Shown here: one piece after another, positions 9,978 to 25,683 of the stretch
Layout of the letters: each line of letters opens with the position of its first letter
Numbering within the stretch: position 1 is the stretch's first letter
NCBI GenBank assembly: GCA_963775425.1
Contig: CAVZJB010000016.1
Span: forward strand, 864,001 to 928,000
Source: an uncultured delta proteobacterium
Lineage (GTDB): Bacteria; Myxococcota; UBA727; VGSZ01
DNA length: 64,000 nt
Reading direction: 5' to 3'
Notes under the pieces: generated by a model
What the model was told of the DNA's origin: nothing
Seen by the model: the letters and a program-made list of their open reading frames with translations, nothing else
Database searches by the model: none
Position numbers and translations under genes: made by a program

Positions 9978-10589
9978 ATGTGGCGCTACGACGATGACGA
10001 CGACGATCACGACAACGACGGCAAGAAGAGCAAGAAGCCCGGTCGTATGGAGGACCGCCTCCTCGACGCGCGCACGCTGATCATCGCCGACGAGGTCAAC
10101 GACGCGCTCTATCGGCGGGTGGCCACCATGCTCACCCTCCTCGAGCGCAAGGATCGCAAGGCGCCCATCACGGCGTTCGTGAACTCGCCCGGCGGGTCCG
10201 CGGACTCGGGCTTCGCCATCTTCGACCTGTTCCGCTTCTCGCCCTGCCCCATCACCACCGTCGCCAACGGCGTGGTGGCGTCGGCGGCGGTGCTCATCTT
10301 CCTCGGCGCCCCCCAGGGCCGCCGGGTGAGCCTGCCCAACGCGCGCTTCCTCCTGCACCAGCCCTCGACGGCCACGCGCGGGCAGGCGAGCGACATCGAC
10401 ATCACCGCGCGCGAGATCTCCAAGCTGCGCCACCGCTACAACGAGGTCGTGAGCGAGGCCACCGGCAAGCCCATCGAGGTCGTCGAGAAGGACAGCGATC
10501 GCGACTTCTGGCTCACGGCGCAGGAGGCCGTGGACTACAAGCTCGCCAACCGCATCTTCACGTCGCGCGCGCAGCTCGAAGAGCTCTAG
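9978..10589 (+). CDS. clpP: ATP-dependent Clp protease proteolytic subunit
   Basis: VNSPGGS, VASAA (Ser), RFLLHQP (His), DRDFWLTAQEAVDY (Asp). Confidence 0.9.
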   Translation: MWRYDDDDDDHDNDGKKSKKPGRMEDRLLDARTLIIADEVNDALYRRVATMLTLLERKDRKAPITAFVNSPGGSADSGFAIFDLFRFSPCPITTVANGVVASAAVLIFLGAPQGRRVSLPNARFLLHQPSTATRGQASDIDITAREISKLRHRYNEVVSEATGKPIEVVEKDSDRDFWLTAQEAVDYKLANRIFTSRAQLEEL

Positions 10590-10668
10590 CGGACCGCTCG
10601 GAAGGCGCGAGCGCCCATCGGTGACTCGGGGCATTGCCCCGGGGCAGCGCCCTTGGGACCATCCGCGC

Positions 10669-12954
10669 ATGACGAGCATCCCCGGCTCCCGCACCAACAA
10701 GCACGTCCGCGGACACCAGCCCGCCGGCCTCGAGGGAGAGCGCCTCGACACCGCCGGACAGGTGGGCCCGGACAAGCCCGCGACGCTCGTGTCCGCCGAC
10801 CGCGTCGTGCACGGCGGCCGGCGCATCGGCGAGATGCCGGCGCGCATGTCCGCGGCGTCGGGGACGCGCGCTTCGAGCCTGCTCGCGGTGCGCACCACCG
10901 GGGCCGGCCGCAGCGGCGACGTCATCCACGAGATCGCCACGCGCAAGGACTTCGACGCGCTGTTCGCCAAGGGCGCGTCGGTGACGGCGGGCGCGCCGTC
11001 GGAGCTCAAGTTCCTCGTCGACAGGAAGACGCACGAGATCTACTTCCTGCCGCCGAAGTACCCCTTCCACTTCGACTTCTACAAAAACGTCCTCCATGGG
11101 CCCATGGACGTCTCCGACTTCGACGCCCACGCCTACAACCGGCCCGATCGCGACTTCATCGCCGGCACCGTCACCGCCTACGACAGCTACGTGGACCCGC
11201 ACAGCGGCGACAAGGGCCAGATCTGCTTCTCCTTGTGGCCGACGGATCGCTTCGACGCCAAGCTGCTCGCCGAGGCCCACGACGCCATCGAGGGCGGGCT
11301 CTCCTTCCTGCAAAACGGCGAGCACGTCGACTTCCGCCCGGGCGGGCCCATCCAGGACAAGCTCGTCGAGGACAACAAGCGCGGCATCGAGGCGGCGGGC
11401 ATCGAGGTCAAGTCCAACCTCGATATCTCCAAAGGCCTCAAGTACATGGCGCTGTCCGACGGCGACGCCGTCGGCCGCCTCGTCGTCATCGACAAGGGCG
11501 CGGCCATGCCGGCGCTCTCGCGCAAGGACGTGGCGCTCTTCCTCGGCGACGTCCCTCCCGACGCGCCGCCGGTCGCCGCCATCTTCACGACGACGGTGCA
11601 GACGTACAACTCGCACCTCGGCATCAAGTACCGCCAGGACGACACGCCCTACTTCTACAAGTCGTTCTCCGACCAGGAGCTCAAGGACCTCAAGGCGCTC
11701 GCCGGAAAGCCCGTCAGCGTCGCCTGCGACGGCAAAGACGCCACCGTCACCGCCGCCACCGACGCGCAGGCGGCGGCGTATTTGAAGAGCATCAAGCCCA
11801 CCGGCCACATCCGGCTCACGCCCAACCTCGGCGAGAACCGCGCGCGCACCTTCGACGAGCTGTCGAAGGCGCTCGTCGGGCGAAGCGGCCGCTGGGACCA
11901 CGACGCCCTGGCGGCCTACGGCCGAAAGACCGCCGGCGTCGTCGAGCTCGCCAAGCTGCACGAGTCCGGCGCGTTCGCCGGCGCGGGCGGCGCGGGCGCG
12001 CCGACGGTGGTGGCGCCCCTGAAGCCCATGGGCATCCCCGCCAACTGGTACACGCGCTTCATCAAGACCGCCAAGGGCGACGACGGCGTCACGTTCTCCG
12101 ACCGCATCAAGCAGATGACGGCGGACCCGCGCTTCAAGGAGGACGGCGACTGGAAGCTGCAGACGCTCGCCAAGCTCCGCCATGACATCGCGCACGCCGA
12201 CATGCCCGCCGAGCTCCTGAAAGACATCCGTGAGCAGGTGGCGGCGCCGTACATCGAGGACCACCCGGGCCTCAACCGCGCGCGCATGCGCTCGTCGTCA
12301 CCGGTGGTCGAGGACGGCGGCGCCGGCAAGCTGCCCAACATGGCCGGCGCTTTCGACTCCCACGGCGCGCACTGGAAGAAGGGCCGCACCAAGAAGGACA
12401 CCCTCGACCACGCCACCAAGGCGTTCGCCGAGGGGCTGCAGAAGGACTACGCCGCCGTCTTCAACGACCGCGCCGTCTCCGAGCTGCAGTGGCACAACGT
12501 CGACCTCGACGAGGAGTCGGTCACCATGGCCGTCCTCGTCATGCCCAACCAGGAAAACGAGAAGGCGAACGGCGTCATCCGGGTGAACCAGGACCTCGCC
12601 GGCTTCTTCTCCGTCACGGGCGAGACGCAGTTCGGCGAGAACCTCGTCACCAACCCCGAACAGGGCGCGTCTCCCGACACGTTCATCGACGGCAACTACG
12701 ACGTGTTGAACGGCGCTGCCAAGCAGGACATCGAGTACGAGCGCGTGAGCAACATCCAGTCGTCGGACCCGCAGCGCGCGCACGCGCTCACCGACGACGA
12801 GATCCACGCGGTGTACGACGCGATGCACATCGTCCGCGACCACTTCGCCGCCCTCGAGGGCAAGCGCCCCGAGGAGTACGTCGACGAGTCCGAGATCAAG
12901 GTCCTCGACGACGGAAACGTCATGTTCAAGCAAGAGCGCCCCTGGGTCGAGTAG
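10669..12954 (+). CDS. PEP/pyruvate-binding (PPDK_N-like ATP-grasp) protein with probable His-swivel segment and N-terminal extension
   Basis: YGRKTAGVVEL, RMRSSSPVVED, NMAGAFDS, MAVLVMP...ANGV; upstream NSHLGI resembles the phospho-His motif. Confidence 0.7.
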   Translation: MTSIPGSRTNKHVRGHQPAGLEGERLDTAGQVGPDKPATLVSADRVVHGGRRIGEMPARMSAASGTRASSLLAVRTTGAGRSGDVIHEIATRKDFDALFAKGASVTAGAPSELKFLVDRKTHEIYFLPPKYPFHFDFYKNVLHGPMDVSDFDAHAYNRPDRDFIAGTVTAYDSYVDPHSGDKGQICFSLWPTDRFDAKLLAEAHDAIEGGLSFLQNGEHVDFRPGGPIQDKLVEDNKRGIEAAGIEVKSNLDISKGLKYMALSDGDAVGRLVVIDKGAAMPALSRKDVALFLGDVPPDAPPVAAIFTTTVQTYNSHLGIKYRQDDTPYFYKSFSDQELKDLKALAGKPVSVACDGKDATVTAATDAQAAAYLKSIKPTGHIRLTPNLGENRARTFDELSKALVGRSGRWDHDALAAYGRKTAGVVELAKLHESGAFAGAGGAGAPTVVAPLKPMGIPANWYTRFIKTAKGDDGVTFSDRIKQMTADPRFKEDGDWKLQTLAKLRHDIAHADMPAELLKDIREQVAAPYIEDHPGLNRARMRSSSPVVEDGGAGKLPNMAGAFDSHGAHWKKGRTKKDTLDHATKAFAEGLQKDYAAVFNDRAVSELQWHNVDLDEESVTMAVLVMPNQENEKANGVIRVNQDLAGFFSVTGETQFGENLVTNPEQGASPDTFIDGNYDVLNGAAKQDIEYERVSNIQSSDPQRAHALTDDEIHAVYDAMHIVRDHFAALEGKRPEEYVDESEIKVLDDGNVMFKQERPWVE

Positions 12955-13005
12955 GGCGGGGGCGTGCCCCCCGCGTCGCAGGGCGGGGGCTCGCCCCCCG
13001 CGTCG
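12955..13005. repeat. Two tandem REP-like palindromes
   Basis: ggcgggggcgtgccccccgcgtcg and ggcgggggctcgccccccgcgtcg; same family as the 24501-24621 units. Confidence 0.75.
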
Positions 13006-13014
13006 GAGGAAACG

Positions 13015-14478
13015 ATGCCCGTGAACAACGTCGGAGACGTCCTCGCCACCGCGGTGATGCGCGAGCGCGCCGGTGAGCCCGAGACCAAGGCCGCGCAGGA
13101 CGCCATCGCCGACATCCTCGCCCACGGCGTGACGCGCGAAGAGCGCACCGAGGTCGCGCAGATGCTGCACAACCTCGAGGGCACGCCGCACGCGGGCCTC
13201 GCCCGCCGCATCTTCGACGGCGTCGCCCACGGCGCCGACGCGGGCCCGTTCGAGGAGCTCAAAGACAAGCTCACGGGCCCGGAGCCGGAGGGCGGGACGC
13301 CGTCGGTCACGTGGCGCGAGGAGGTCCCCACGGCCCCGCAGCAAAAGGCATGGAACGCGGTCATCACCCAGACCCAGCTCGAGCTGTCCGGGATCAACAA
13401 GACCGTCGGGCGCGGCTTTCACCAAAAGCAGATCTTCGGCGGCGCCGCCCGCATGAAGGTGAACCCGTCGCTGCCCAAGGAGGCGCAGATCCCGCCGTTT
13501 TGGGACGCCAACGCCGGCAAGCCGGTGGACCTGGCGGGGGTGGTGCGGATGTCCAACGGCCAGGGCTGCCCGTTCAAGGACGCCGGCCCCGACGTGCGCG
13601 GCCTCGCCGTGAAGCTCGTCGATCCGAACGGCAAGGGCTGGGACATCCTCTCCACCAACCGCCAGACCTTCGCCGAGGACGTCCCGCAGTTCATCGGCTT
13701 CACCAAGGCCAGCAAGGAGGCCAACCTGCGCGGCAACTCCGTCGTCGGCGAGCTCAAGCAGGCGGTGGTGCTCACCGAGGAGATCGGGCCCGTGCAGGCC
13801 ACGCGCATCTCCACGCAGCTCGCCAAGGACACCGTGCTCAAGCACGTCAACGGCCTCGCCACCGAGAGCTTCGACGGCGGCACGTTCAAGACGCCCGACG
13901 GACACCTCGCCAAGGTGTTGTTCACGCCGGTGCCCGGCGCCGTCGACTGCATGACGCGTCACGACGTCGAGAGGGACGAAAACGGGCTCACCACGGAGCT
14001 GTATCGCCACTTCGAGAGCGGTCCGGTGAAATTCCGCGTGCAGCTCAAGATCTTCTGCGGCAAGGGCGACGAGCTGAAGGCCAACGACCGCTGGGAGCCG
14101 TCCAGGATCATCGACGTCGGCGAGCTGTCCATCCCGCCGCCGGACAAGGCCGTCGATCAGAAGGTCCAGACCCTGGTGAACGGCATGCGCTTCAACCCGG
14201 GCACCGGCTTTCAGCCCGCCGGACAGATGACGCACGCGCGCGGGGCGCAGCCGGGCAAAAACGGCGACTACCTCGTCGACGGCATCTACAAAAAGAGCGC
14301 CGACAACCGCCTCGCCCTCGACGACACCCCCGCCGTGCTCTCCGTCGCCCGCGGCCTCGGCAACGGCGACGTCGACGCCGCCGTGTTTGGCGGCCTCGTC
14401 GCCGAGGTCGAAAAGCGCAACGCGCAGATGGCCGAGGAGGTCGAGGACGGCACCGTCGCCAAGCGGCTCGCGTCGTGA
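13015..14478 (+). CDS. Catalase-like haem protein (catalase-related peroxidase type) with N-terminal helical extension
   Basis: GGAGGA RBS; RGFHQK (distal His), VRMSNG...PDVRGLAVK, FNP, R...IYKKSADNR (probable proximal Tyr). Confidence 0.75.
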   Translation: MPVNNVGDVLATAVMRERAGEPETKAAQDAIADILAHGVTREERTEVAQMLHNLEGTPHAGLARRIFDGVAHGADAGPFEELKDKLTGPEPEGGTPSVTWREEVPTAPQQKAWNAVITQTQLELSGINKTVGRGFHQKQIFGGAARMKVNPSLPKEAQIPPFWDANAGKPVDLAGVVRMSNGQGCPFKDAGPDVRGLAVKLVDPNGKGWDILSTNRQTFAEDVPQFIGFTKASKEANLRGNSVVGELKQAVVLTEEIGPVQATRISTQLAKDTVLKHVNGLATESFDGGTFKTPDGHLAKVLFTPVPGAVDCMTRHDVERDENGLTTELYRHFESGPVKFRVQLKIFCGKGDELKANDRWEPSRIIDVGELSIPPPDKAVDQKVQTLVNGMRFNPGTGFQPAGQMTHARGAQPGKNGDYLVDGIYKKSADNRLALDDTPAVLSVARGLGNGDVDAAVFGGLVAEVEKRNAQMAEEVEDGTVAKRLAS

Positions 14479-14521
14479 CGGAGCTCTCCGCGTGGGCCGC
14501 GGCGCGCGCGGCGGCCTGCCG

Positions 14522-14929
14522 GTGAGCGGCGCCCTGTCCCCGCTCGCCGAGGCGCTCTTGCGGCCGCTCCTCGACGGGCGCGCGGAGCCCGCGCTCACCG
14601 ATGACGAGCTCATGTCGCTCGCGGAGCGCGCGCAGCACCTCGCCGGCAACCAGGAGCTCGCGCACGAGCTCCTCGCCGTCGCGCGAAAGCTCGACGCCGC
14701 CGGCGCCGGCGTCGCCCGCGACCAGGCCATCGTCGTCGCGGCCGTCGTCCTCGAGGACGTGGAGCTCAACGGCGCGCTGTGCCGGAGGCTCTACGCGGGC
14801 AAGCGCAGCCTCGACAACGTCACCGGCCACCCCGAGGTCCGCCACGGCCCCGCGGCGCCGCCCGACCCCGCCCGCTCGGCCCTGTCCGCGCGGCTCGCCG
14901 CCCTGGCCGGCGTCGACCGAAAGCCCTGA
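14522..14929 (+). CDS. Small helical hypothetical protein, paralogue of 18081-18365
   Basis: GTG start; shares L.D.E...R.Q...A..L...GAG.A...A...AAV.L.D.ELN with 18081-18365. Confidence 0.65.
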   Translation: MSGALSPLAEALLRPLLDGRAEPALTDDELMSLAERAQHLAGNQELAHELLAVARKLDAAGAGVARDQAIVVAAVVLEDVELNGALCRRLYAGKRSLDNVTGHPEVRHGPAAPPDPARSALSARLAALAGVDRKP

Positions 14930-14994
14930 GTGCGTGCGACGGTCACGCCCGCTGCGCCGCGGCCGGCGGTAGACTCCGGGTCCCGAGGTTCCCC

Positions 14995-17900
14995 ATGGCC
15001 ACCAGCATCAACAACAAGCAGGCCACCGCCCTCCCGCACATCAAAAAGCCGGACGTGTCGAGAGCCGGGCTCTCTAAAGTGGGGGCGCTCGTCGACAGCG
15101 GCGCCACCGACGAGGTGCGCGCCGAGAGCCGGATCGAGGGCACGGTCCCCCTGCAAAAGGCGCAGGCGTCGGCGCAGCTCCAGAAGGTCAGCGCCACGCG
15201 GATCCTGAAGCCGCCGCCGTTCGACCCCAAGCAGCCCGCGGACGCGCAGCTCATCGTCGCCGGCGCCGGCATCGGCGGCGGACCGATCTCGCGCCTCGCC
15301 GAGCAGGGCTTTCAGGTGAAGTTCCTCGAGGGCGGGCCCGCGCAGCGGGACTGGTTCGACGACGTGCCGCTGCTGCACGCCAAGGCATCGGACACCTCCT
15401 TCAACGTCGACGGCTATTCGCCGCCCATGGCGCTGCTCGCGTACTTCGTCGACCACTACGAAGCCCAACAGAAGAACCTCGACCTCAAGTTCCACGACGA
15501 GCTCGGCGGCATCCTCTACCCGCGCGGCCAGGGCCCCGGCGGCTCCGGCAACGTCAACGCCAACGTCGCCGTCGCGCCCGACAAGAAGTCGTGCGAAGGC
15601 CTCTTCGTCCAGTCGGGCAAGGACCCGCGCTTCTCGCCGGCCAGCCTGCAGAAGTACTTCGCGCGCGCGCAGGACACGGGGCCGCTGTTCTCGTTCCTCG
15701 AGACCGTCGGCCACGTCGCCAAGGCGCTGCAGGACAAGGGCCTCAAGCGCGAGGACTTCGCGCGCCTCACCGAGCCCGGCGGCTGGCAGCAGATCACCCA
15801 CGCCGTCGACCACCTGCGCCTGAAGGACCTCACCGGCGACCCGCAGCTCAGGGACATCACGCTGCACATCCTCGCGTACACGGCCAAGAAGCACAGCTTC
15901 GCCGACACGCTCATCCGCGTGATGACCCTGTTCGACTCCAACAACGAGCTGAACTTCGGGCGCGAGGGCTTCACCAACATGCCCATCTCCGTCGGCAAGG
16001 ACGGGCGGCGCTCGTCGGTGGTCGACCGCCTCAAGGCGGTGTTGCAGACGCGGCCGGACACCATGAGCCTCGAGTGCGAGACCAAGGTGCATAGCCTCAT
16101 CTTCAACAAGGAGGGCACCCGCGTCGAAGGCATGCGCGTGTTGAAGCCGGCCAAGGCGGTCCTCGAGCAACGGCAGCTCATCTACGCCCTGCAGGAGAAC
16201 CTGCCCAACATCCCGGCAGACAAGGTCGAGGACTACAACGCCCGCATCGGGCGCGAGATCGACAAGCTCAAGGAGCTCGAGGCCAACACGCCGCCGGAGA
16301 TGGAGATCAAACGCTCCACCAACGGCTACGTGCTCTCGGCGGGGACGTTCGAGGACCCCAACATCCTCATCCGCTCGGGCTACGGCCCCAAGGACGTCCT
16401 CGAGCGCCTCGGCATCCCGCCGGTGGGCGGCGCGTATCACGAGGCGGTGGGCAGGAACCTGAAGGACCGCCGCGAGATCACGGTGATGTACCACGCCAAG
16501 GACAAGTTCGCGCTCATCGACGGGCTCGGCCTCGGCAAGAACCCCCACAACGACGACGCCATGAAGGTCTGGGAGAAGTCCGGCCGCGGCCCCTACGCCA
16601 CCAACGGCGTCGTCTGCTCCTACCAGTTCAAGAGCGACCCTTCGCAGCCCGAGGCGGACATCTTCGCCTTCTTCGTGCCCGGTCCCTTCCGCGGCTACGA
16701 CACCGGCTACGCCGTCGACGCGACGAAGTATCCGCAGACGTTCACCGCGGTGCTTCTCGACAAGAACGGCAACCTCGTCTCCGACGACACCAAGCGGCTG
16801 ATGACGTCCGGCGAATTCGAGGAGCTGCGCGACAGGCTGGGCACCGTTCAGCCCGACCCCGAAGACCCCATGAAGTCTTCCATCAACTTCAACTACCAGC
16901 GGCCCAAGCCAGGCGAGAACCCGCCGCTGTACTCGGCCATGCTGCGCATGAAGGACCTGTTCAAGGGGCAGGACGTCCTCACCGAGCTGGTCCCCGGGGA
17001 CCCCTTCGACACGGCGCCCACCTCCAGCAAGGCGGACCTCATCCGCTTCGTCGAGAGCACCGACCTGTTCCCCAAGTACCCGGCCGACGATCTGCGCTCC
17101 GCCGAGGACTGGTTCCGCCAGATGGACGTGCCGCTGTTCGACAAGGACGGCAAAGAGCACAAGCTCACGCTGGTGCGCACGCCCCTGCCCGGCCAGGAGG
17201 GCGCGGAGAAGCCCGAGCTGTCCACGCGCGCCAAGCTCCTCGTCGACGGGAAGCCTGCGAGCGACAAGGCGCTCGCGGGGCTCTCGCTCGTCACGGGCAA
17301 GCCGCTGTCGGCGGCGGGGATGAAGGAGGCGCTGCAGCGCGGGTTCCTGATCGAATTCCAGGCTTCGCAGTCCTGGGGCCACCACGCCAACGGCACCTGC
17401 TCCATGGGGCCCGACGCGCAGAACAACGTCATCGGCTCGGACTTCCGCGTGCACGGCGTCGAGAACCTGTGGGTGGCGTCGGCGTCGTCGACGCCGGCGG
17501 CGGTGAATCCGGGCACCTTCATCCAGCTCTACGTCGCCGCGGCGGTGGGCGAAGCGGCCGGCGACGCCATCGGCGAACAGATGCGCGCCAACGAGAACCA
17601 CCTCGGGCGCATGTCGCCCCTGGCCACGCGCCTGCCGGCGGAGCAATCCAAGAAGAACACCCTCGGCGAGAACCTGCTCATCGCCATCGACCGGGCCCGC
17701 GGCCACGTCGGCGACTCCCAGGGCGTGCTCACGGGCGAAGCGGTGACGCAGCTCCTTGCCATGCAGAAGCAGCGCGGCTTCTCCAAGGACGACGTCGCCC
17801 TCGCGGAGAAGGTCTACGACCGCGCGGAGAAGCGCGAGGACAAAAACGCGCCCGTGTTGAAGGTGCTCGCCGGCGAGGTCCGCAAGATGAGGAAGGACCA

Positions 17901-18084
17901 GGGCTTCCTCCTCGACATCAAGGCGGCCCTGCGCCGCAACGGCGATCACCTCACGAGCGATCAGGTGCTGCGCGTCCTGCGCGAGGTCGGTCTTCGCGAA
18001 GACGAGATCGCGAAGACCACCGGCGCGCCGCCCGACGCCGGCGGCTCGGCCGACTGGGGTGCCGGCGGCGGGGTTGGATCATGA
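14995..18084 (+). CDS. GMC oxidoreductase with N-terminal extension, insertions and C-terminal helical extension
   Basis: VAGAGIGGG FAD motif, YPRGQGPGGSGNVNA, VLSAGTFEDPNILIRSGYGP, VGRNLKD, WGHHANGTCSMG, RVHGVENLWVASAS. Confidence 0.85.
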   Translation: MATSINNKQATALPHIKKPDVSRAGLSKVGALVDSGATDEVRAESRIEGTVPLQKAQASAQLQKVSATRILKPPPFDPKQPADAQLIVAGAGIGGGPISRLAEQGFQVKFLEGGPAQRDWFDDVPLLHAKASDTSFNVDGYSPPMALLAYFVDHYEAQQKNLDLKFHDELGGILYPRGQGPGGSGNVNANVAVAPDKKSCEGLFVQSGKDPRFSPASLQKYFARAQDTGPLFSFLETVGHVAKALQDKGLKREDFARLTEPGGWQQITHAVDHLRLKDLTGDPQLRDITLHILAYTAKKHSFADTLIRVMTLFDSNNELNFGREGFTNMPISVGKDGRRSSVVDRLKAVLQTRPDTMSLECETKVHSLIFNKEGTRVEGMRVLKPAKAVLEQRQLIYALQENLPNIPADKVEDYNARIGREIDKLKELEANTPPEMEIKRSTNGYVLSAGTFEDPNILIRSGYGPKDVLERLGIPPVGGAYHEAVGRNLKDRREITVMYHAKDKFALIDGLGLGKNPHNDDAMKVWEKSGRGPYATNGVVCSYQFKSDPSQPEADIFAFFVPGPFRGYDTGYAVDATKYPQTFTAVLLDKNGNLVSDDTKRLMTSGEFEELRDRLGTVQPDPEDPMKSSINFNYQRPKPGENPPLYSAMLRMKDLFKGQDVLTELVPGDPFDTAPTSSKADLIRFVESTDLFPKYPADDLRSAEDWFRQMDVPLFDKDGKEHKLTLVRTPLPGQEGAEKPELSTRAKLLVDGKPASDKALAGLSLVTGKPLSAAGMKEALQRGFLIEFQASQSWGHHANGTCSMGPDAQNNVIGSDFRVHGVENLWVASASSTPAAVNPGTFIQLYVAAAVGEAAGDAIGEQMRANENHLGRMSPLATRLPAEQSKKNTLGENLLIAIDRARGHVGDSQGVLTGEAVTQLLAMQKQRGFSKDDVALAEKVYDRAEKREDKNAPVLKVLAGEVRKMRKDQGFLLDIKAALRRNGDHLTSDQVLRVLREVGLREDEIAKTTGAPPDAGGSADWGAGGGVGS

Positions 18085-18365
18085 ACAGCGACGACGTCAA
18101 CGCCATCGCCACCGAGGTCCTCGAGCGCTGCGCCCTCGCCGACGGCAAGCTCACGCTCGCTGACGGCGAGTTCGCCGCGTTCGGCAAGCGCATCCAGCAA
18201 GCCGACGACAAGAAGGCCTGGGGCACCGCGATGATCGCGCTCGCCAACCGCCTGCGCGGCGTCCCCGGCGCGGGCCCCGCCGCCGAGCGCGCCCTCGCCC
18301 TCGCCGCCGTCGCCCTCGGCGACGCCGAGCTCAACCGCCTCGTCAGCCGCGAGAACGCTCCTTGA
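18081..18365 (+). CDS. Small helical hypothetical protein, paralogue of 14522-14929
   Basis: ATGA overlap with the GMC stop (translational coupling); similarity to 14522-14929. Confidence 0.7.
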   Translation: MNSDDVNAIATEVLERCALADGKLTLADGEFAAFGKRIQQADDKKAWGTAMIALANRLRGVPGAGPAAERALALAAVALGDAELNRLVSRENAP

Positions 18366-19192
18366 CCGTGCCGGCGCGGCGCTCTTTGGCCTCGCTTGAC
18401 GCCTACACGGTGGACTTCGCGCTCGACGGCCCCGGCAGCCTCGACCCCGGCGGCAGCGTGTCCACCCTCGATGGCCAGGCGTGCACCGGCTACGCGGCGC
18501 CCGATCCCTATCCCGCAGCAGGCGGCGAGGCCACGGTGCTCGCCGCGCTCGACGACGGCGTCGGCGCGGTGAGCGGCAGCGCGCAGATCGCGCTGCAGCC
18601 GACGTCGGGCGCCGCCGTGTGGAGCGGCACGCTCGAGGTGCACGAGGCGTGCACCATCACCACCATCGGCGAGAGCGGCCACCAGTGCGACGGCGCCTCC
18701 GTGCAGTGCGACCCGCGCGTCGACGAGGACGGCGTGAACGTGACCGTGGCGCTGCAGCTCGCGCGCGATGACGCGGGCACGTTCACCGCCACCGTCCAGA
18801 GCCTCGCCGAGGACCACCTCTTCGAGCTGACGTTCTGCGATCACCTCTTCTCGCACGAGGACGGGACCTCGACGGGCGTCGTCGACCAGGCCCTCGTCTC
18901 CGACGAAGGCGATGGGCTCGTGGTGACCATCTTCACCGAGGACGACATCCATACCGACGGCGGCGACGTCGACATCTGCACGCCGCGCAACCACACCGAC
19001 ACCAGCGCCCAACAGCAGCTCAGGCTCGCGCTCGTCGCCGACCCGCCGGGCGCGCCCGTGCCGACGCGCTTCGTGCTCGCCGATCCCCAGCCCGACATCG
19101 ACTCGTGCGTCGACGTGGACAACCCCAAGGACTCGGCTGTGGACACCTACGAGGGCGGCGTCACCCTCACCGGCGCGCTCACGCGCCCGTAG
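18362..19192 (+). CDS. Hypothetical acidic beta-rich protein
   Basis: TTG start overlapping the upstream stop; typical codon usage; no family recognised. Confidence 0.55.
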   Translation: MTVPARRSLASLDAYTVDFALDGPGSLDPGGSVSTLDGQACTGYAAPDPYPAAGGEATVLAALDDGVGAVSGSAQIALQPTSGAAVWSGTLEVHEACTITTIGESGHQCDGASVQCDPRVDEDGVNVTVALQLARDDAGTFTATVQSLAEDHLFELTFCDHLFSHEDGTSTGVVDQALVSDEGDGLVVTIFTEDDIHTDGGDVDICTPRNHTDTSAQQQLRLALVADPPGAPVPTRFVLADPQPDIDSCVDVDNPKDSAVDTYEGGVTLTGALTRP

Positions 19193-19196
19193 GTGC

Positions 19197-19751
19197 TCAC
19201 CCCAACCAGCCGCGGATCTCGCCGTGCGGCTGCGGGATGAGCTCGATGCCGACGACGCGGTCTTCGCGCGCGCCGTCCTTCACGGCGTCGAGGGCGGCGG
19301 CGACGTCGGCGAGCGCGCCGGCGAGCGTGAACCAGCCCTTGCCGCCGACGCCGACGGCGAGGTGCATGCGCAGCACGGCGACGTCGACGGCCTTGAGCGC
19401 GGTGTCGGCGGCGAGCACCGCCGCGGCAGCCGTGCTCATCTCCACGATCCCGACGGCGTCGCCGGGCGCGGGCGCCACGGCCTGATCGATCGCGGGCAGG
19501 AGCTGCGGGTGCGCGCCGGGGAGGAACAGCTCGTCGACGAGGTCGGAGCCGGCGACCTCGAGGGCGACGGCGTGCGACTCGCGCGTGGCCTCGACGTCAC
19601 CCCCGAAGATCACGAGGAGCTTCCCGGGCGTGACCGGCTTCGCGTGCTTCACCGTCACCGGCGCCTTCTTCACGAGCGCGTCGAGCATGACGAGGCCGCG
19701 GGCGATGGACCCGGTCTCGACGACGGCGACGGCTTCGAGCGAAGAGCGCAT
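19197..19751 (-). CDS. Microcompartment tandem-domain shell protein (BMC-T, PduT/Haliangium T1-like)
   Basis: VVETGSIARGLVMLDALVKKAPV...PGK...; IVEMSTAAAAVLAADTALK...LAVGVGGKGWF...G.LADV. Confidence 0.9.
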   Translation of the reverse strand: MRSSLEAVAVVETGSIARGLVMLDALVKKAPVTVKHAKPVTPGKLLVIFGGDVEATRESHAVALEVAGSDLVDELFLPGAHPQLLPAIDQAVAPAPGDAVGIVEMSTAAAAVLAADTALKAVDVAVLRMHLAVGVGGKGWFTLAGALADVAAALDAVKDGAREDRVVGIELIPQPHGEIRGWLG

Positions 19752-19808
19752 CGACCTTCCATGACGTCCGCGGGAGCGCCGATACACGGGCGCCCTACCC
19801 GTCGCCGG

Positions 19809-20360
19809 CTACACCTTCGGCGACGGCGCCTTCCTGGTGAACTTCTTTTCGTACGCGGCCAGGGAGCGCTCGACCACCTTCACGGCCTCGTCGAGCCCGA
19901 GCGGCGCGGCGACGCGCACGTCCTTCTCCTCGAGCGCCTTGTAGTCGCCGAAGAAGCGCATGACCTCGTTCATGCGGAAAGGCGCGAGGTCGTCGAGGGT
20001 GCGCACGCCGTCGAACATCGGGTCGCCGATCATCACGCCGATGATCTTGTCGTCGACGTCGCCCTGGTCGATCATCGGCATCACCCCGATGACGCGCGCG
20101 CTCAACAGCGCCCCCGGCTGCACGTCCTCCTGCGAGAGCACCAGGACGTCGAGGGCGTCGCCGTCGTCGTCGAGGGTCTGCGGGATGAAGCCGTAGTTGG
20201 CGGGGTAGTGGATGGCCCCGTAGAGCACGCGGCTCGCCCGCAGGAGGCCGGAGTCCTTGTCGATCTCGTACTTGACGCGGCCCCCGCGCGGGATCTCGAC
20301 GAAGACGTCCACGACGCGCGGGACGCCGCTTCCGGGGCTCAGATCGTGCCAGGCATGCAT
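19809..20360 (-). CDS. ppa: Inorganic pyrophosphatase (family I)
   Basis: EIPRGGRVKYEIDK, YPANYGFIPQT, DGDALDVLV, DQGDVDDKI, FFGDYKALE. Confidence 0.95.
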   Translation of the reverse strand: MHAWHDLSPGSGVPRVVDVFVEIPRGGRVKYEIDKDSGLLRASRVLYGAIHYPANYGFIPQTLDDDGDALDVLVLSQEDVQPGALLSARVIGVMPMIDQGDVDDKIIGVMIGDPMFDGVRTLDDLAPFRMNEVMRFFGDYKALEEKDVRVAAPLGLDEAVKVVERSLAAYEKKFTRKAPSPKV

Positions 20361-20407
20361 GCGCGCGGTTGTAGACCGCCCGGGGTGCTCCCGTCGACGC
20401 CCCGTAC

Positions 20408-20431
20408 GGCGGGGGCTCGTCCCCCGCGTCG
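20408..20431. repeat. Single REP-like palindrome
   Basis: ggcgggggctcgtcccccgcgtcg, near-exact reverse complement of the 24-nt BMC repeat unit. Confidence 0.75.
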
Positions 20432-20491
20432 TCATGATCCGGCGCGGTCGACGTTGCCGGTGCCCTCCCACGCGCCCCACAAGGGCGCGCC

Positions 20492-21946
20492 CTACGGCCG
20501 CTCCTGGAGCGGCCCGACGACGACGGCGGGCGCGACCAGCGTCGCGGCGGCGGCGGTGAGGCCCTGCTGCGACGCGCTTCCGACGGCGCCCCAGCGAAGC
20601 GCCGCCTCGTCGGACGCGGTGGCGAGGTCGAGGGGCACGGAGAAGACCATGGCCAGGTCGGCGGGGCCGGTGTTGGTGAGGCTCCCCGCGCCCGGCCCGG
20701 CGCCGAAGTAGGTGTCAAGGATCGCGTCGGTGTCGTCGCTGTCGAAGGCGTCGGCGCCCTCGACGAAGGCGGCGGCGCACCCGGGAGCGCCGCAGATGCG
20801 CATGGCGCCGGTGCCGGCGTCGCGAAACGACGTGTTGTTGTCGAAGGAGGGCACGTCGACGTCGAAGAGCAGGCGCACCTCGGCCGGCGCGGTCGTCGCC
20901 GCACCGGAGATGAAGCTCACGCCCACGAAGCCGGGAACGGCGTCGTCGAGGGCGACGAGCTCGCGGATGACGAGGCCGTCGGGCCCGGCCGCGCTCTGGC
21001 CGACGACGGTGAAGCCGCCGTCGACGAATTTCCGCCGCGCGCCGCTCACCGGCGACAGCAGCGCGGGCGGCGCAGGGGGAGAGCCGCCGCAGGAGCTCGG
21101 CGCGAACGCCTTGTCGGCACCGTCGACGAGCCCGATGGCGCGCTCGAAGAAGAGGTCGTCCTGCGAGGAGAACATCTCGTTGCCGTGGAGCGTGAGCGGC
21201 GCGTCGCCGGAGTTGCCGCCGTTGCGGCCGAAGCGCATGGGCGCGCCCGCGCCGGCGTACATGGAGAGCAGCCAGAAGTCGTTGCGCCACGTCGGCGGCG
21301 GCGCGGCCGTGCCGTCGTCGAAGTACACGGTGAGCGGGTGGGGGCCGCTGCCGGCGGGGAGCCGCGCGAAGAGCCAGACGCGCCCGGCGCCGCGGTCGGC
21401 GAACGCGGGGACCAGCGCGCCGTCCTCGGCGTGCACGCGCAGCGACGGCGGGTCCGCGACCGCGCCGCTGTGTCCGGCGGCCGCGAGCAGGCCGTCGAGA
21501 TCGAGCGGCACGATCGCCGTCGCCGGCCCTGCCTCGTCGATCGCGACGTCGACGGCGAAGGCGAGCCCGGGCTCGAGCCACGGGTCGCCCTCTCCTTCGC
21601 CCTCGCCCTCCCCTTCTCCTTCGCCTTCGCCTTCCCCTTCGCCCTCTCCTTCGCCCTCTCCTTCGCCCTCTCCTTCGCCTTCGCCTTCTCCCTCGCCCTC
21701 TCCTTCGCCTTCGCCTTCGCCTTCTCCCTCGCCTTCGCCTTCGCCCTCCCCTTCACCGGACTCGCCCTCCCCTTCACCCTCGCCCTCGCCCTCGTCGCCG
21801 GCGAGCGCCACGATGCACGCCCCCGCCGCGCACGTGTAGCCCGAGACGCAGGCGTGGGTGTCGTCGCAGCTCTTGCCGCCGAGCGCGACGTCGTCGACGC
21901 AGGAGGAGACGGCGCAGGCGGTGATGAGCAGGAGTGCGAAGCGCAC
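20492..21946 (-). CDS. Lipoprotein: small Cys module + long (GE)n linker + unknown C-terminal domain
   Basis: GTG start, lipobox-like VSSC, CDDTHACVSGYTCAAGAC, (GE)n at about 21587-21795. Confidence 0.75.
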   Translation of the reverse strand: MRFALLLITACAVSSCVDDVALGGKSCDDTHACVSGYTCAAGACIVALAGDEGEGEGEGEGESGEGEGEGEGEGEGEGEGEGEGEGEGEGEGEGEGEGEGEGEGEGEGEGEGEGEGEGEGDPWLEPGLAFAVDVAIDEAGPATAIVPLDLDGLLAAAGHSGAVADPPSLRVHAEDGALVPAFADRGAGRVWLFARLPAGSGPHPLTVYFDDGTAAPPPTWRNDFWLLSMYAGAGAPMRFGRNGGNSGDAPLTLHGNEMFSSQDDLFFERAIGLVDGADKAFAPSSCGGSPPAPPALLSPVSGARRKFVDGGFTVVGQSAAGPDGLVIRELVALDDAVPGFVGVSFISGAATTAPAEVRLLFDVDVPSFDNNTSFRDAGTGAMRICGAPGCAAAFVEGADAFDSDDTDAILDTYFGAGPGAGSLTNTGPADLAMVFSVPLDLATASDEAALRWGAVGSASQQGLTAAAATLVAPAVVVGPLQERP

Positions 21947-21968
21947 GGCCCCAGAGTAGCACCCCCCG

Positions 21969-22666
21969 TCAGCGCCGGATCGTTCCGGGTCGGGGGTGCG
22001 GCGGGCTCCGGGGAGGGGGCTCGTCGCCGCTTCCGGTGGCGGCGGCGCGCACGCCGCGGTCCGCGTCATGGGCGAGGGCGTGCAGGACGTCGGCCGCGCC
22101 GTGGACGCCGCGCAGGGCACGGGCGACGGCGGCGCGCACGGCGGGGGCGGCGTCGGCGCGCAGGCCGAGGGTGACGCCGAGATCGCCCGGCCCCCGGCGC
22201 GCGGCGAGCGCGTCGACGGCGCGCGCGAGGAGCGCCGCGCGCCGTTCGCCGCCGCCCGCCCTCTCCCGCGCGATGACCGCGAGCGCGACCTCGCGCACCC
22301 GCGGCGCGCCCGGCGCCGCGGCGGCGCGCCGCGCGAGGCAGTCGAGCGCCTGCAGCTCGGTGCTCTGCGCCCCCGCCGACGGCGCCGGCGCCTGCGCGAC
22401 CGCCGCCCCCTCTGCGGCGAGGAGCCCCGGATACGCGGGCGTGTCGACATGGCGGCACATCGCGTCCGCGACGAACGCGCCGACGGAGCGCTCCACGCCC
22501 GCGTCGATCTCGAACACGAGCACGAGCGCGTCGTCGGCGAGGAGGGCGCGAAGCTGGACGCGAGCACGGCGAGCGCCTTGTCGTCGACGCGATCGGCCGG
22601 GTCGTTCACCGGGGGCGGCGCCGCAGCGAGGACCAACGCGAGGGCGAGCGCCGCCGGGCACCTCAC
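21969..22666 (-). CDS. Exported HEAT-repeat-like protein with an apparent 1-nt frameshift near 22560
   Basis: Signal peptide MRCPAALALALVLAAA in one frame; LRADAAPAVRAAVARAL...LAHDADRGVRAAA in another; GTG overlaps the restored ALDH stop. Confidence 0.55.
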
Positions 22667-24184
22667 ACGATGCGGAAGTAGTCCTTCAGCGTGCAGCGGC
22701 GCTCACGGGAAAACGAGAATCGCCGTCGTGAGGCCCTCACCCGTGGGCGAAGCGATGGTGAAGCTGGTGTAGCCCTCGCCGCCGAGGCCGAGGCCCGCGA
22801 ACGTGGGCGCGTTCTTCACGTAGATGGAGCAGTCGATGGCGCGGGCCATCTTGTGCAGCGTCTCGATGTTGGTGGAGTAGCACGTGGCCGTGTGCCCGAA
22901 GCCGTGCTCGCAGCGCACCGCGGCGGCGATGGCCTCGTCGACGTCCTTGACGCGCACCATGGGGAGCACCGGCATCAACAGCTCGGTCTGCACGAAGGGG
23001 TGGTCCTCGCCGTCCACCTCGCACAGCAGGACGCGCGTGGACTCGGGGACGGTCTTGCCGATGGCGCGGGCGATCTTGGCCGCGTCCTTGCCGACCCAGT
23101 CCTTGTGGGGGTGGGCGCCGTCGTCGGCGAGGACGAGCTTCTCGAGCTTGCTGATGTCCGCCCGCGACATCTCGGCGCCGCCGGCAGCGAGGATCTCGCG
23201 CTTGAGCATGTCCGCGATCTCACGGACCGCGAACACCTCCTTCTCCGCGATGCACACGATGTTGTTGTCGAGCGACGCGCCCGCGACGATGCCCTTGCCC
23301 GCGCGGCGCATGTCGGCGGTCTCGTCGACGACCACGGGCGGGTTGCCGGGGCCGCCGCAGATGGCGCGCTTGCCCGAGGTCATCGCCGCCTTGACCACGC
23401 CCGGCCCGCCGGTGACGACGACGAGGCGGATGCCCGGGTGGCGCATGAGCGCGTTGGCGCTCTCGATGGTGGGCTCGCCGATCATGGCGATGAGCGAGTC
23501 CGGCCCGCCGGCGGCGACGATGGCGTCGTTGAGTTGCTCGACCAGGAAGCGGCAGACCTTCTTGGCGCCCGGGTGGACGTTGAACACCACCGAGTTGCCC
23601 GCGGCGATCATGCCGATGGAGTTGCAGATGATGGTCTCGGTGGGGTTGGTGGTGGGCGTGATGGCGCCGATGACGCCGTAAGGGGCCCGCTCCATCAACA
23701 CGAGGCCGTCGTCGCCGGACTGCGCCCACGGCCGGAGGATCTCCGTGCCGGGCGTCTTGTCGGTGACGAGCTTGTTCTTGTTGATCTTGTCGTCGAACCT
23801 GCCGAGGCCCGTCTCGTCGACGGCCATCTGCGAGATCTGCTGCACGATCTGGTGGCAACGCGCGCGGATGGCGGCGATGACCCGGTCGCGGTCCGCCAGG
23901 TGCATCTCGTGGACGAGGATCTCGTGGGCGCCGCGGGCGGCCTTCACGGCGCTGTCGATGTCGTCGAACACGCCGCGCCTGGCGGAGCCGTGCACCGCGA
24001 ACGACCGGCGCCCGCCCCCGCCGCCGATGGACGCGCGCCACGCGGGCTCGGGGGGCGTGGGGGCGCACACCTCGCCGCGGGCGGGCGTGGGCACGGGAGG
24101 CGCGCGACGCTCGAGCGCGGGGGCGAGCCGCTCGACCACGCGGGCGACGATCTCTTCCACCTTGCGGTCGTCGAAGCTCGCCAT
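22663..24184 (-). CDS. BMC-associated acylating aldehyde dehydrogenase (EutE/PduP family) with N-terminal encapsulation peptide; 1-nt insertion near 22718
   Basis: PYGVIGAITPTTNP, VTGGPGVV, GPGNPP, DNNIVCIAEKE, TIASPTGEG; removing one base restores ISFSRERRCTLKDYFRIV* ending at 22663. Confidence 0.92.
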
Positions 24185-24187
24185 GGG

Positions 24188-24490
24188 TCAGCTCGCCGCT
24201 TCCGACTTCCGGTAGCGGGACTTCCCCTGCACCGTGATCTCGTCGACGATGGCCATGATGACGTGGTCGACGGGCTTGTTGCGCGTGACCTCGGTCTGCC
24301 GCGCGGACGAGCCCGCCGCGTAGAGCACGAGCTCGCCCACACCCGCGCCGACGGCGTCGGCGGCGACCACGACGGAGCTGGTGAGCTTGCCGTCGAGGTC
24401 CACGCCCCGCACGACGAGGAGCTTGATGCCCTCGATCTCCGGCTCTTTGCGCGTGGACACCACGGTGCCGACAATCTGCCCCATCAACAT
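24188..24490 (-). CDS. Microcompartment vertex pentamer (BMC-P, EutN/CcmL family)
   Basis: [43 protein letters not shown]. Confidence 0.95.
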
Positions 24491-24500
24491 GGCTCAACTC

Positions 24501-24621
24501 CGAAAGGCGGGGACGAGCCCCCGCACGAAGCGGGGGACGAGCCCCCGCACGAAGCGGGCGACGAGCCCCCGCACGAAGCAGGGGACGAGCCCCCGTTCGA
24601 AGCGGGGGACGAGCCCCCGCC
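24501..24621. repeat. Five tandem 24-nt palindromic units (CGAAGCGGGGGACGAGCCCCCGCA)
   Basis: Units start at 24501, 24526, 24550, 24574, 24598; consensus has a GCGGGGG/CCCCCGC stem and ACGAG loop; no spacers. Confidence 0.92.
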
Positions 24622-24924
24622 CTACTTCTTGGTGGCTCCGAGGGGAAGGACGTCGTCGATGTTGGCGTGCGGCCGCGGGATGACGTGCACGCTCACGAGC
24701 TCGCCGACGCGCTCGGCCGCGCGGGCGCCGGCCTCGGTGGCGGCCTTCACGGCCGCGACGTCGCCGCGGACGATGGCGGTGACGAACCCCCCGCCGTAGC
24801 CCTTCTCGTAGCCCACGAGGCTCACCTTGGCGGCCTTCACCATGGCGTCGCTGGCCTCGACCATGCCGACGAAGCCCTTGGTCTCGATGAGACCCAACGC
24901 CTGCCCAACCACGCTGTCTGCCAT
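24622..24924 (-). CDS. Microcompartment hexamer shell protein (BMC-H)
   Basis: [24 protein letters not shown]...[14 protein letters not shown]...HVIPRPH; GGAGG RBS. Confidence 0.97.
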
Positions 24925-24938
24925 CTCTGTCCTCCGAG

Positions 24939-25574
24939 CTATTTGTCCTTGGACGTCGCCGGAGCGACGCCGGTGATGCCTTCGAGCGCGGCCGTCGCCG
25001 CGGCCGCCGCGCTGTCGATCTCGCTCTCGCTGCCCGCCATGTACAAGCGCCCGAAGGCGCCGAACGGCAGGAAGTCCACGAGGCGCACGTTGGCCGCTTT
25101 CTCGGCCTCGTTGGCGGCCAACGCGATGTACGCCGCGGGCTCGCACTCCATGATGAGCAGCGACAGGCCCGGCTCGATCATCGCGCCGAAGCGGATCTTG
25201 TCGATGATCATCGCGTGCATCGGCTCGATGGCGCGGATGATGGTGTTGGACACCACGCGCGGCTTGATGCGGTCGTCGACCTTGTTGCCGAGCTGCTTGA
25301 GGATGGCGTCGCCCGCGGAGAGCACCTCGCCCTTGTCCTCGTGGTGCACCTCGAGCATACCGTAGGCGCGCTCGACGACGAGCGTGGCCGGCTGCGCGCG
25401 CGTGTTCTTGAGCGCGGAGTCGAGCAGGCGGTGGATGGCCATGCCCGGCGCGATCTCGACGAAGAGGGACGCGACGCCCGGCACCGGGAAGTAGCCGCGG
25501 CACGTCGTGCAGATGTGCGCCGCTACCTGCGGCTGCAGCGAGTCGAGGAAGGTGTAGCTGCGCAGAGTCGCCAT
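24939..25574 (-). CDS. Microcompartment permuted tandem shell protein (BMC-Tdp, CcmP/Haliangium T2-like)
   Basis: [49 protein letters not shown]. Confidence 0.93.
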
Positions 25575-25683
25575 GATGGCGCGCGGAGTAGCACTGCGGA
25601 GCGGTCGGTCGCAAGCGGTACGAGCCACTTCGGACGCCGCCGAGGCGGAGACGTCCGGCGGTGCGGCGCAGTAGCCTCGTGGC

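Follow-up and report, generated by a model that had tools for sequence, protein, structure and literature searches.

A small protein family, Y, encoded beside peroxide-linked enzymes that share a helical domain, X, in Myxococcota

Several described systems place an enzyme next to a small dedicated protein or next to a second redox domain. GMC dehydrogenases have a gamma subunit, a small protein that bears a Tat signal for 'hitch-hiker' export and is encoded upstream of the enzyme. Type III secretion chaperones of class I have a mixed alpha/beta fold with a five-stranded sheet and bind within the first ~100 residues of their clients. Coral and cyanobacterial lipoxygenases are fused to a catalase-related domain, the lipoxygenase making the peroxide that serves as substrate of that domain, and yeast peroxisomes pair alcohol oxidase with catalase. 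Here, a locus was analyzed in a 64,000-nucleotide stretch of DNA (the window) from an uncultured delta proteobacterium of the Myxococcota (GenBank assembly GCA_963775425.1, contig CAVZJB010000016.1, positions 864,001 to 928,000). In this locus, a GMC flavoprotein oxidase-like enzyme and a catalase-related haem protein each carry a helical domain, here named X, and each gene is followed by one for a small protein, here named Y. Positions given without a contig or locus name are those of the window.

X and Y are two protein families that co-occur strictly, are encoded by adjacent and coupled genes, have diverged in step and are in part fused to one another, and X also joins GMC and catalase domains within single proteins. 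From this behaviour, we infer that Y physically binds X. Y would then be a dedicated binding partner of X, a small non-catalytic subunit whose likeliest job is the assembly of peroxide-linked enzymes; this is the reading that we favour, tentatively and with the probability leaning a little against it. An assembly or channelling role for the X-Y pair is itself speculative.

Two protein families, X and Y

Because the G+C content of the window is ~70%, plots of third-position GC (GC3) were used to choose the true reading frames. The genes and domains that carry the finding are listed below with the evidence for each.

13015-14478, + strand: catalase-related haem protein, 487 aa, with N-terminal X (PDB 3e4w, E = 2.2e-10; likeness to the L022 fusion; GC3)
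13015-13374, + strand: domain X, divergent copy, profile positions ~31-142 (BLASTP against the X region of a fusion, E = 4e-5; alignments; collinear with the X of L022)
14522-14929, + strand: small partner Y_A, 135 aa, with a subfamily-specific C-terminal tail of ~45 aa (genome search; family alignment)
14995-18084, + strand: GMC flavoprotein oxidase-like enzyme of 1029 aa; ~90 disordered residues at the N-terminus, X at the C-terminus (Pfam GMC_oxred_N and GMC_oxred_C)
17545-17997, + strand: domain X of the GMC enzyme, followed by two extra short helices to ~18020 (local alignments; structure model)
18081-18365, + strand: small partner Y_B, 94 aa (ATG overlapping the GMC stop as ATGA)

The original prediction, made from the letters of the window, had read the four genes as two modules, each consisting of a large redox enzyme and a small partner. 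All four are real, with + strand coding backed by GC3 for 13015-14478, 14522-14929, 14995-18084 and 18081-18365. Both Pfam GMC models scored above their cut-offs on the longest gene, as partial matches (GMC_oxred_C, 48.6 bits against 24.6; GMC_oxred_N, 27.7 bits against 23). The 'catalase-like' call was also upheld, by a match of residues 174-381 to the solved catalase-related structure 3e4w, though the protein has no Pfam or NCBIfam match of its own. The proposed coupling of the GMC and Y_B genes is present in the sequence as ATGA, and the start of Y_A is ambiguous between GTG 14522 and GTG 14492. As had been claimed, neither enzyme has a recognizable Sec signal, the N-termini having been judged by reading with no predictor run. 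The non-catalytic extensions pointed out on both enzymes are likewise real and turn out to be a single shared domain, X.

The two small proteins had been aligned by eye and proposed to be related. Their pairwise similarity is marginal (BLASTP, 34% identity over 74 aa, E = 0.055), yet a phmmer search of the 83,839 six-frame open reading frames (ORFs) of the genome retrieved Y_A with Y_B at E = 4.4e-4. A paralogue on contig C5 of the same genome matched both Y_B (E = 1.7e-19) and Y_A (E = 9.9e-6), with the next matches at 0.48 and 0.06. Because the genome-wide search was significant and the C5 paralogue links both proteins, the kinship of Y_A and Y_B is considered to be real, and on these alignments the three small ORFs are one rare, unannotated family, Y, of ~95 aa. 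The C5 copy is at the same time the third occurrence in this genome of the module, which had been suspected of being a repeated one.

Profile searching of 5.8 billion clustered proteins yielded 32 members of Y. Among 1.84 billion representatives, searched exhaustively with HMMER, 22 matches reached E ≤ 1e-3, and 13 of these reached E ≤ 1e-10. The alignment of the 32 sequences separates into subfamilies and has an invariant C-terminal motif. An AF2 model built on this alignment was compact (pLDDT 95.4, pTM 0.87), with one helix, a two-stranded hairpin and four further helices. Net charge was -4 to -1 in eight of ten copies, 0 in one and +1 in one, and neither a signal peptide nor a membrane segment was seen by reading. 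No match was found for either small protein in Pfam (E ≤ 0.01), or for the family in NCBIfam or PADLOC. A Foldseek search of the PDB with the Y model returned nothing at E ≤ 1e-3, the best hit of a wide VIA search (Z 7.7, a helical-repeat segment) lay within the range of unrelated helical proteins, and nothing usable came out of ESM Atlas look-ups for either family. Proteins of the Y_A type share a Pro-rich linker and a short terminal helix (14804-14929).

Several candidate members were removed from the family. Weak matches in three same-family genomes (E 3.7e-4 to 2e-3) failed the 1e-5 threshold with a larger profile, L011 (tblastn, 1e-4) had no HMM match at 1e-3, and the long 'Y' matches P0051 and P0060, listed with P0058, were repeat proteins on inspection.

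Every enzyme that precedes a Y bears X, a common helical domain of ~100 aa (the shared stretch is ~100-130 residues). Local alignments at E 1e-11 to 1e-20 connect the C-terminal extension of the window GMC protein with the N-terminal part of a peroxygenase-like protein and with the C-terminal ends of GMC relatives, and the N-terminus of the window catalase-related protein is a divergent copy of the same domain. X is C-terminal in six GMC proteins, internal in two fusions and N-terminal in two haem proteins. All 11 of the longer X-bearing proteins that were found belong to three enzyme kinds, namely GMC (7), peroxygenase-like (2) and catalase-related (2), and of the nine GMC_oxred_C matches in the window's own genome only the window GMC has X and Y. 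The model of X consists of four helices (overall pLDDT 67.8, core ~80-87). As a separate region, X had no match in Pfam, NCBIfam or PADLOC, and a Foldseek search with its model gave nothing at E ≤ 1e-3. Compared as profiles, X and Y have no relationship to each other (hhalign probability 0.2%), so that Y cannot be taken as a stand-alone copy of X. The long GMC protein of the window bears an extra amphipathic helix C-terminal to X (17998-18084), which is shared by P0071.

Linkage between X and Y was assessed in the window's own genome and in a sample of 401 Myxococcota genomes (E ≤ 1e-5), so that the counts reflect samples and related genomes. In the own genome there are exactly three X and three Y, arranged as three adjacent pairs. 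Y was detected in 6 of the 401 genomes and X in the same six, at adjacent places and with identical copy numbers (3, 1, 1, 2, 1, 1); in the other 395, neither was found at this threshold. Carriers are patchy: family f14 has 5 among 172 genomes, and the window's own family has none among 10. A profile search of this kind, with upstream neighbours tabulated, had been suggested by the original prediction. At the loci retrieved, the ORF directly upstream bears X for all ten of the Y genes whose upstream DNA was long enough, a count that leaves out an eleventh Y (L009) with just 125 nt upstream. Stop and start codons overlap as ATGA in eight of the ten enzyme-Y pairs, and gaps of 13-43 nt and 14 nt separate the other two.

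Pairwise distances among the ten X and among their ten Y partners were strongly correlated (Mantel r = 0.82, a value reached by 0 of 10,000 permutations), and the most divergent X pairs with the most divergent Y. The correlation shows that X and Y have been diverging together since a time before the paralogues separated; by itself, it does not prove contact. In two metagenomic proteins, P0046 and P0048, the second half of an X (profile positions ~76-119, at residues 3-46) is joined in frame to a complete Y (residues 54-144).

Enzymes that carry X

The window GMC protein has a GxGxxG-type motif, 'GAGIGGG' (by reading), and alcohol oxidases and formate oxidase are the solved proteins closest to it. 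The window catalase-related protein shares 34-38% identity with the C-terminal halves of two fusion proteins, which are positive for Pfam Catalase, and its alignment with the X-plus-catalase part of one of them, L022, covers 452 aa at 34% identity. In catalase-related proteins (mini-catalases), the haem residues are a distal His and a proximal Tyr. The candidate haem motifs 'GRGFHQK' and 'GIYKKSADNR' are kept in P0073 and in the fusions, as located by reading.

The third module of the own genome (G000) lies on contig C5 at 70082-71697 (L001:10082-11697). Its enzyme, P0007, is a 437-aa peroxygenase-like, putatively haem-thiolate protein with an N-terminal X, and it is followed by Y_C with an ATGA overlap. 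P0007 had no Pfam match; it aligned with unspecific peroxygenases (PDB 9tm7, E = 2.3e-4; 9wa6, E = 1e-3), including the 'CP' haem-ligand motif. Secreted-protease-like and Cys-rich repeat genes are the neighbours of this module.

GMC, X and catalase were found joined in single genes at two loci, L010:4045-7956 from a metagenome and L022:591-4253 from genome G314. The called proteins are 1220-1303 aa long, with that of L010 probably extended too far at its start, and their catalase halves scored 31.8 (L010) and 29.1 (L022) bits with Pfam Catalase (cut-off 25). Directly after each fusion gene stands one Y. In the window, the GMC and catalase-related enzyme genes are direct neighbours. By family knowledge, a GMC oxidase of the alcohol/formate-oxidase type presumably makes H2O2 and the two haem proteins presumably consume peroxide, and the three enzyme kinds would be expected to form a coherent set of H2O2-producing and H2O2-consuming enzymes.

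With the lipoxygenase fusions, the GMC-X-catalase proteins share a mini-catalase-type domain that is fused or adjacent to an oxygen-using enzyme, an arrangement that would imply a hand-over of peroxide. They differ in that the partner is a flavin oxidase and in that an additional X and a separate Y are always present. The combination of a presumed H2O2-producing GMC oxidase, nearest among solved structures to alcohol oxidases, with a catalase-type enzyme is also that of the yeast peroxisome; here it is bacterial, and the association is through gene fusion or adjacency together with X-Y. Bacterial FAD-dependent GMC dehydrogenase complexes resemble the window pair in that a neighbouring gene supplies the flavoenzyme with a small partner of its own. 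Unlike the gamma subunit, Y is encoded downstream and also accompanies haem enzymes; in addition, Y gave no Pfam match at E ≤ 0.01 and has no RR motif at its N-termini by reading. A literature search returned no description of bacterial GMC-catalase fusions, of peroxygenases in myxobacteria or of oxidase/catalase microcompartments.

Genomic setting of the window block

The remaining features of this part of the window are as follows.

9978-10589, + strand: ClpP (GC3-backed gene run)
10621-12954, + strand: PPDK_N-like protein, start uncertain (Pfam PPDK_N, 29 bits)
18362-19192, + strand: acidic 276-aa ORF, last gene of the putatively inserted block (GC3; no Pfam, NCBIfam or PADLOC match)
19197-26201, - strand: bacterial microcompartment (BMC) locus, HO-like type by gene set

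The six genes of 10621-19192 (8.6 kb) form a block that ends 4 nt from a BMC-T shell gene. Convergent with this block, on the - strand, are the genes for the tandem-BMC shell protein (BMC-T, 19197-19787), an inorganic pyrophosphatase, a TrAA12-like protein, an aldehyde dehydrogenase, BMC-P (EutN) and a BMC-domain ORF. By reading of its gene set, the locus appears to be of the Haliangium ('HO') kind, a microcompartment whose function is called enigmatic in a passage of PMC8217296. The TrAA12-like protein bears a long Gly-Glu repeat, and the aldehyde dehydrogenase has an N-terminal amphipathic helix with a Pro-rich linker. A 420-aa ORF with a C-terminal BMC domain (24939-26201, - strand) overlaps a Ser/Thr kinase gene (25684-28077, + strand); the true shell gene there is probably much shorter, with the BMC match at ~24670-24900.

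In G006, a genome of the same family, the BMC-T gene follows ClpP after ~1 kb, and tblastn of the six block genes against a 20-kb stretch of G006 gave no match. The G+C content of the enzyme genes is 0.66-0.70, against 0.72-0.73 in the flanks. Because the block is absent from the G006 junction and its enzyme genes are lower in G+C, 10621-19192 is best read as an insertion beside the BMC locus and is probably an acquired island. The block showed no integrase and no repeat boundary, and scans for promoters and terminators gave nothing exceeding shuffled controls. The PPDK_N-like gene has no counterpart at other X-Y loci and is absent at the syntenic site of G006, and the acidic ORF is not kept beside X-Y at other loci.

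Beyond the enzyme-Y pair, no neighbour is conserved between unrelated loci. The neighbours elsewhere include a calpain-like peptidase with a rhomboid (in two related genomes), kinases, FAD oxidoreductases, CorA and PKD-domain proteins. An exception is found in G353, where both GMC(X)-Y pairs are immediately preceded by a conserved gene of 586/626 aa (L023:5668-7428 and L026:1825-3705). Its product has no Pfam or PDB match and has a weak likeness to the distal-His region of catalase-related proteins (BLASTP, E = 0.014); it may be a very divergent haem partner. Across the nine X-Y loci examined, secretion-system genes stand beside none, and shell genes are next door at one, that of the window. 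The own genome has two full-length FHIPEP (FlhA/SctV-type export gate) genes, at C9:346101-348068 and C4:94448-96469, and its X-Y loci are on C16 and C5.

Possible roles of the X-Y pair

In the assembly reading, X would have been grafted onto three unrelated peroxide-linked enzymes (a GMC oxidase, a catalase-related protein and a haem-thiolate peroxygenase-like protein), and each enzyme would be made together with its Y from coupled genes. X and Y would form a portable, two-part, non-catalytic accessory unit that holds the enzymes in a defined oligomer or co-assembly, in which peroxide from the oxidase could be passed to the haem enzymes and not released. Assembly is favoured as the role because the clients comprise a peroxide producer and two kinds of consumer, and because the oxidase and the catalase-related enzyme are fused through X in two lineages. 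The coherence of this enzyme set and the fusion of two of its members also argue for a shared metabolic task as opposed to a collection of unrelated effectors.

A number of points weigh against this proposal. Most carrier genomes have just GMC(X) and Y, with no X-bearing haem enzyme, so that the bridging of different enzymes cannot be the universal role; any universal role must serve the oxidase alone, for example in its oligomerisation, stability, regulation or location. Simple co-inheritance of neighbouring genes would likewise produce both the co-divergence and the co-occurrence. The fused forms of half an X and Y (P0046 and P0048) are known only as short proteins on contigs of 1108 and 1401 bp, and no full-length enzyme-X-Y fusion was found, either in a dedicated search, which was weak, or among the 1.84 billion representatives. 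X, at its pLDDT of 67.8, is only moderately well modelled. A complex prediction for the X of the window GMC with Y_B gave ipSAE values of 0.00 and 0.01 and, having been run without controls, speaks neither for nor against binding. The putative enzyme activities and H2O2 chemistry are drawn solely from family membership.

The original prediction preferred a common export chaperone or adaptor. In such a role, Y would bind X and hand the signal-less enzymes to a type III-like, Tad/Kil or type VI machine or to vesicles, with the oxidase acting outside the cell, for example on prey. By reading, no enzyme has a Sec-type N-terminus, the N-termini of the GMC proteins are long, disordered and rich in Ser, Thr, Gln and Pro, and the genome has the two FHIPEP genes. 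Secretion chaperones and adaptors are typically small, mostly slightly acidic proteins encoded beside the client, and two of the enzyme types have extracellular relatives in fungi. Effectors paired with type III class I chaperones, with type VI adaptors or with the LXG-Lap targeting factors of type VIIb all have a small partner beside the client, and the X-Y modules have in common with such pairs that one partner family serves unrelated catalytic domains through a shared non-catalytic region. The differences are that Y has no sequence or fold match, that none of the nine loci is linked to secretion (the FHIPEP genes being on other contigs) and that the position of X varies. With its five helices and single two-stranded hairpin, the Y model is unlike the class I chaperone fold, X is found at the C-terminus, internally or at the N-terminus of its client, and the window catalase-related protein begins with X and has no disordered leader. 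Nothing specific favours a secretion or effector role, and we regard export by this route as rather unlikely; of the proposal, an adaptor or docking function fits the shared X, and a link to secretion is not supported by the nine loci. The same prediction had offered toxin and immunity as a second possibility. In a role of that kind, Y would silence a harmful H2O2-producing oxidase in the producer cell. A small, translationally coupled gene downstream is the usual layout of toxin-immunity pairs, and GMC oxidases of the window type release H2O2 by family knowledge. Nonetheless, one Y family follows three unrelated catalytic domains, peroxide-consuming haem enzymes among them, and tracks the non-catalytic X, and no PADLOC or toxin-family match was found. 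A partner common to unrelated catalytic domains argues against immunity aimed at any one of them; such immunity is unlikely, the claim in that form was not sustained, and little credence is given to inhibition in general, even less than to any other reading considered here.

Y could instead be a folding or stability chaperone that holds X transiently during maturation, through cofactor loading or oligomerisation, and then leaves. Coupling, adjacency and co-divergence are expected equally under this explanation and under assembly, and a partner common to FAD and haem enzymes would have X as its target, as opposed to a cofactor site. Against it, the in-frame proteins of half an X and Y are better explained by a lasting association than by a passing one, and no likeness to known maturation factors was found in the libraries searched, which is weak evidence; we consider a transient role improbable. 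Targeting to the adjacent compartment would be a further role, with X-Y or the extra terminal helices sending the enzymes into the HO-type microcompartment as a peroxide-handling organelle. Non-catalytic additions at either terminus or between domains are a property of BMC encapsulation peptides, and the block lies 4 nt from the BMC-T shell gene; those peptides are helices of ~18 aa, whereas X folds as a domain of ~100 aa whose partner is a protein of its own. Shell genes are present in six of six Y genomes, against 157 of the 401 sampled and 66 of 172 in family f14 (tallies that include the unpublished G195), but this co-occurrence is confounded by kinship (5 genera), and in the five other genomes shell genes and X-Y are on different contigs. 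No shell gene is nearby at eight of the nine loci, all ten genomes of the own family have shell genes and none has X or Y, and, by the G006 junction with BMC-T ~1 kb after ClpP, the window block is best read as an insertion. The helix after X in the GMC protein and the Pro-rich linker and helix of Y_A recall the encapsulation-type helix of the aldehyde dehydrogenase; the resemblance is by eye only, and the GMC proteins of ~800 aa have no such tail. The enigmatic function of HO microcompartments, as worded in that passage of PMC8217296, leaves room for a role of this kind, and we nevertheless hold compartment targeting to be very improbable. Equally improbable in our estimation is the bolder idea of X-Y as a movable tag for address or assembly, by which an H2O2-producing oxidase and peroxide-using haem enzymes would be brought together in one particle, here the neighbouring HO-type microcompartment, as a functional analogue of the peroxisome.

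The analysis defines two unannotated families, domain X and its small partner Y, which go together across genomes as strictly as the parts of an obligate complex would and are attached to oxidases and to peroxide-using haem enzymes. It also draws attention to GMC-catalase fusions and to peroxygenase-like proteins in bacteria. If Y does bind X, the two would be a natural, transferable docking pair that has been moved between enzyme termini and between enzyme families. Such a pair would be of interest for enzyme scaffolding and for oxidase-peroxygenase cascades, in which the in-place supply of H2O2 is a practical problem.

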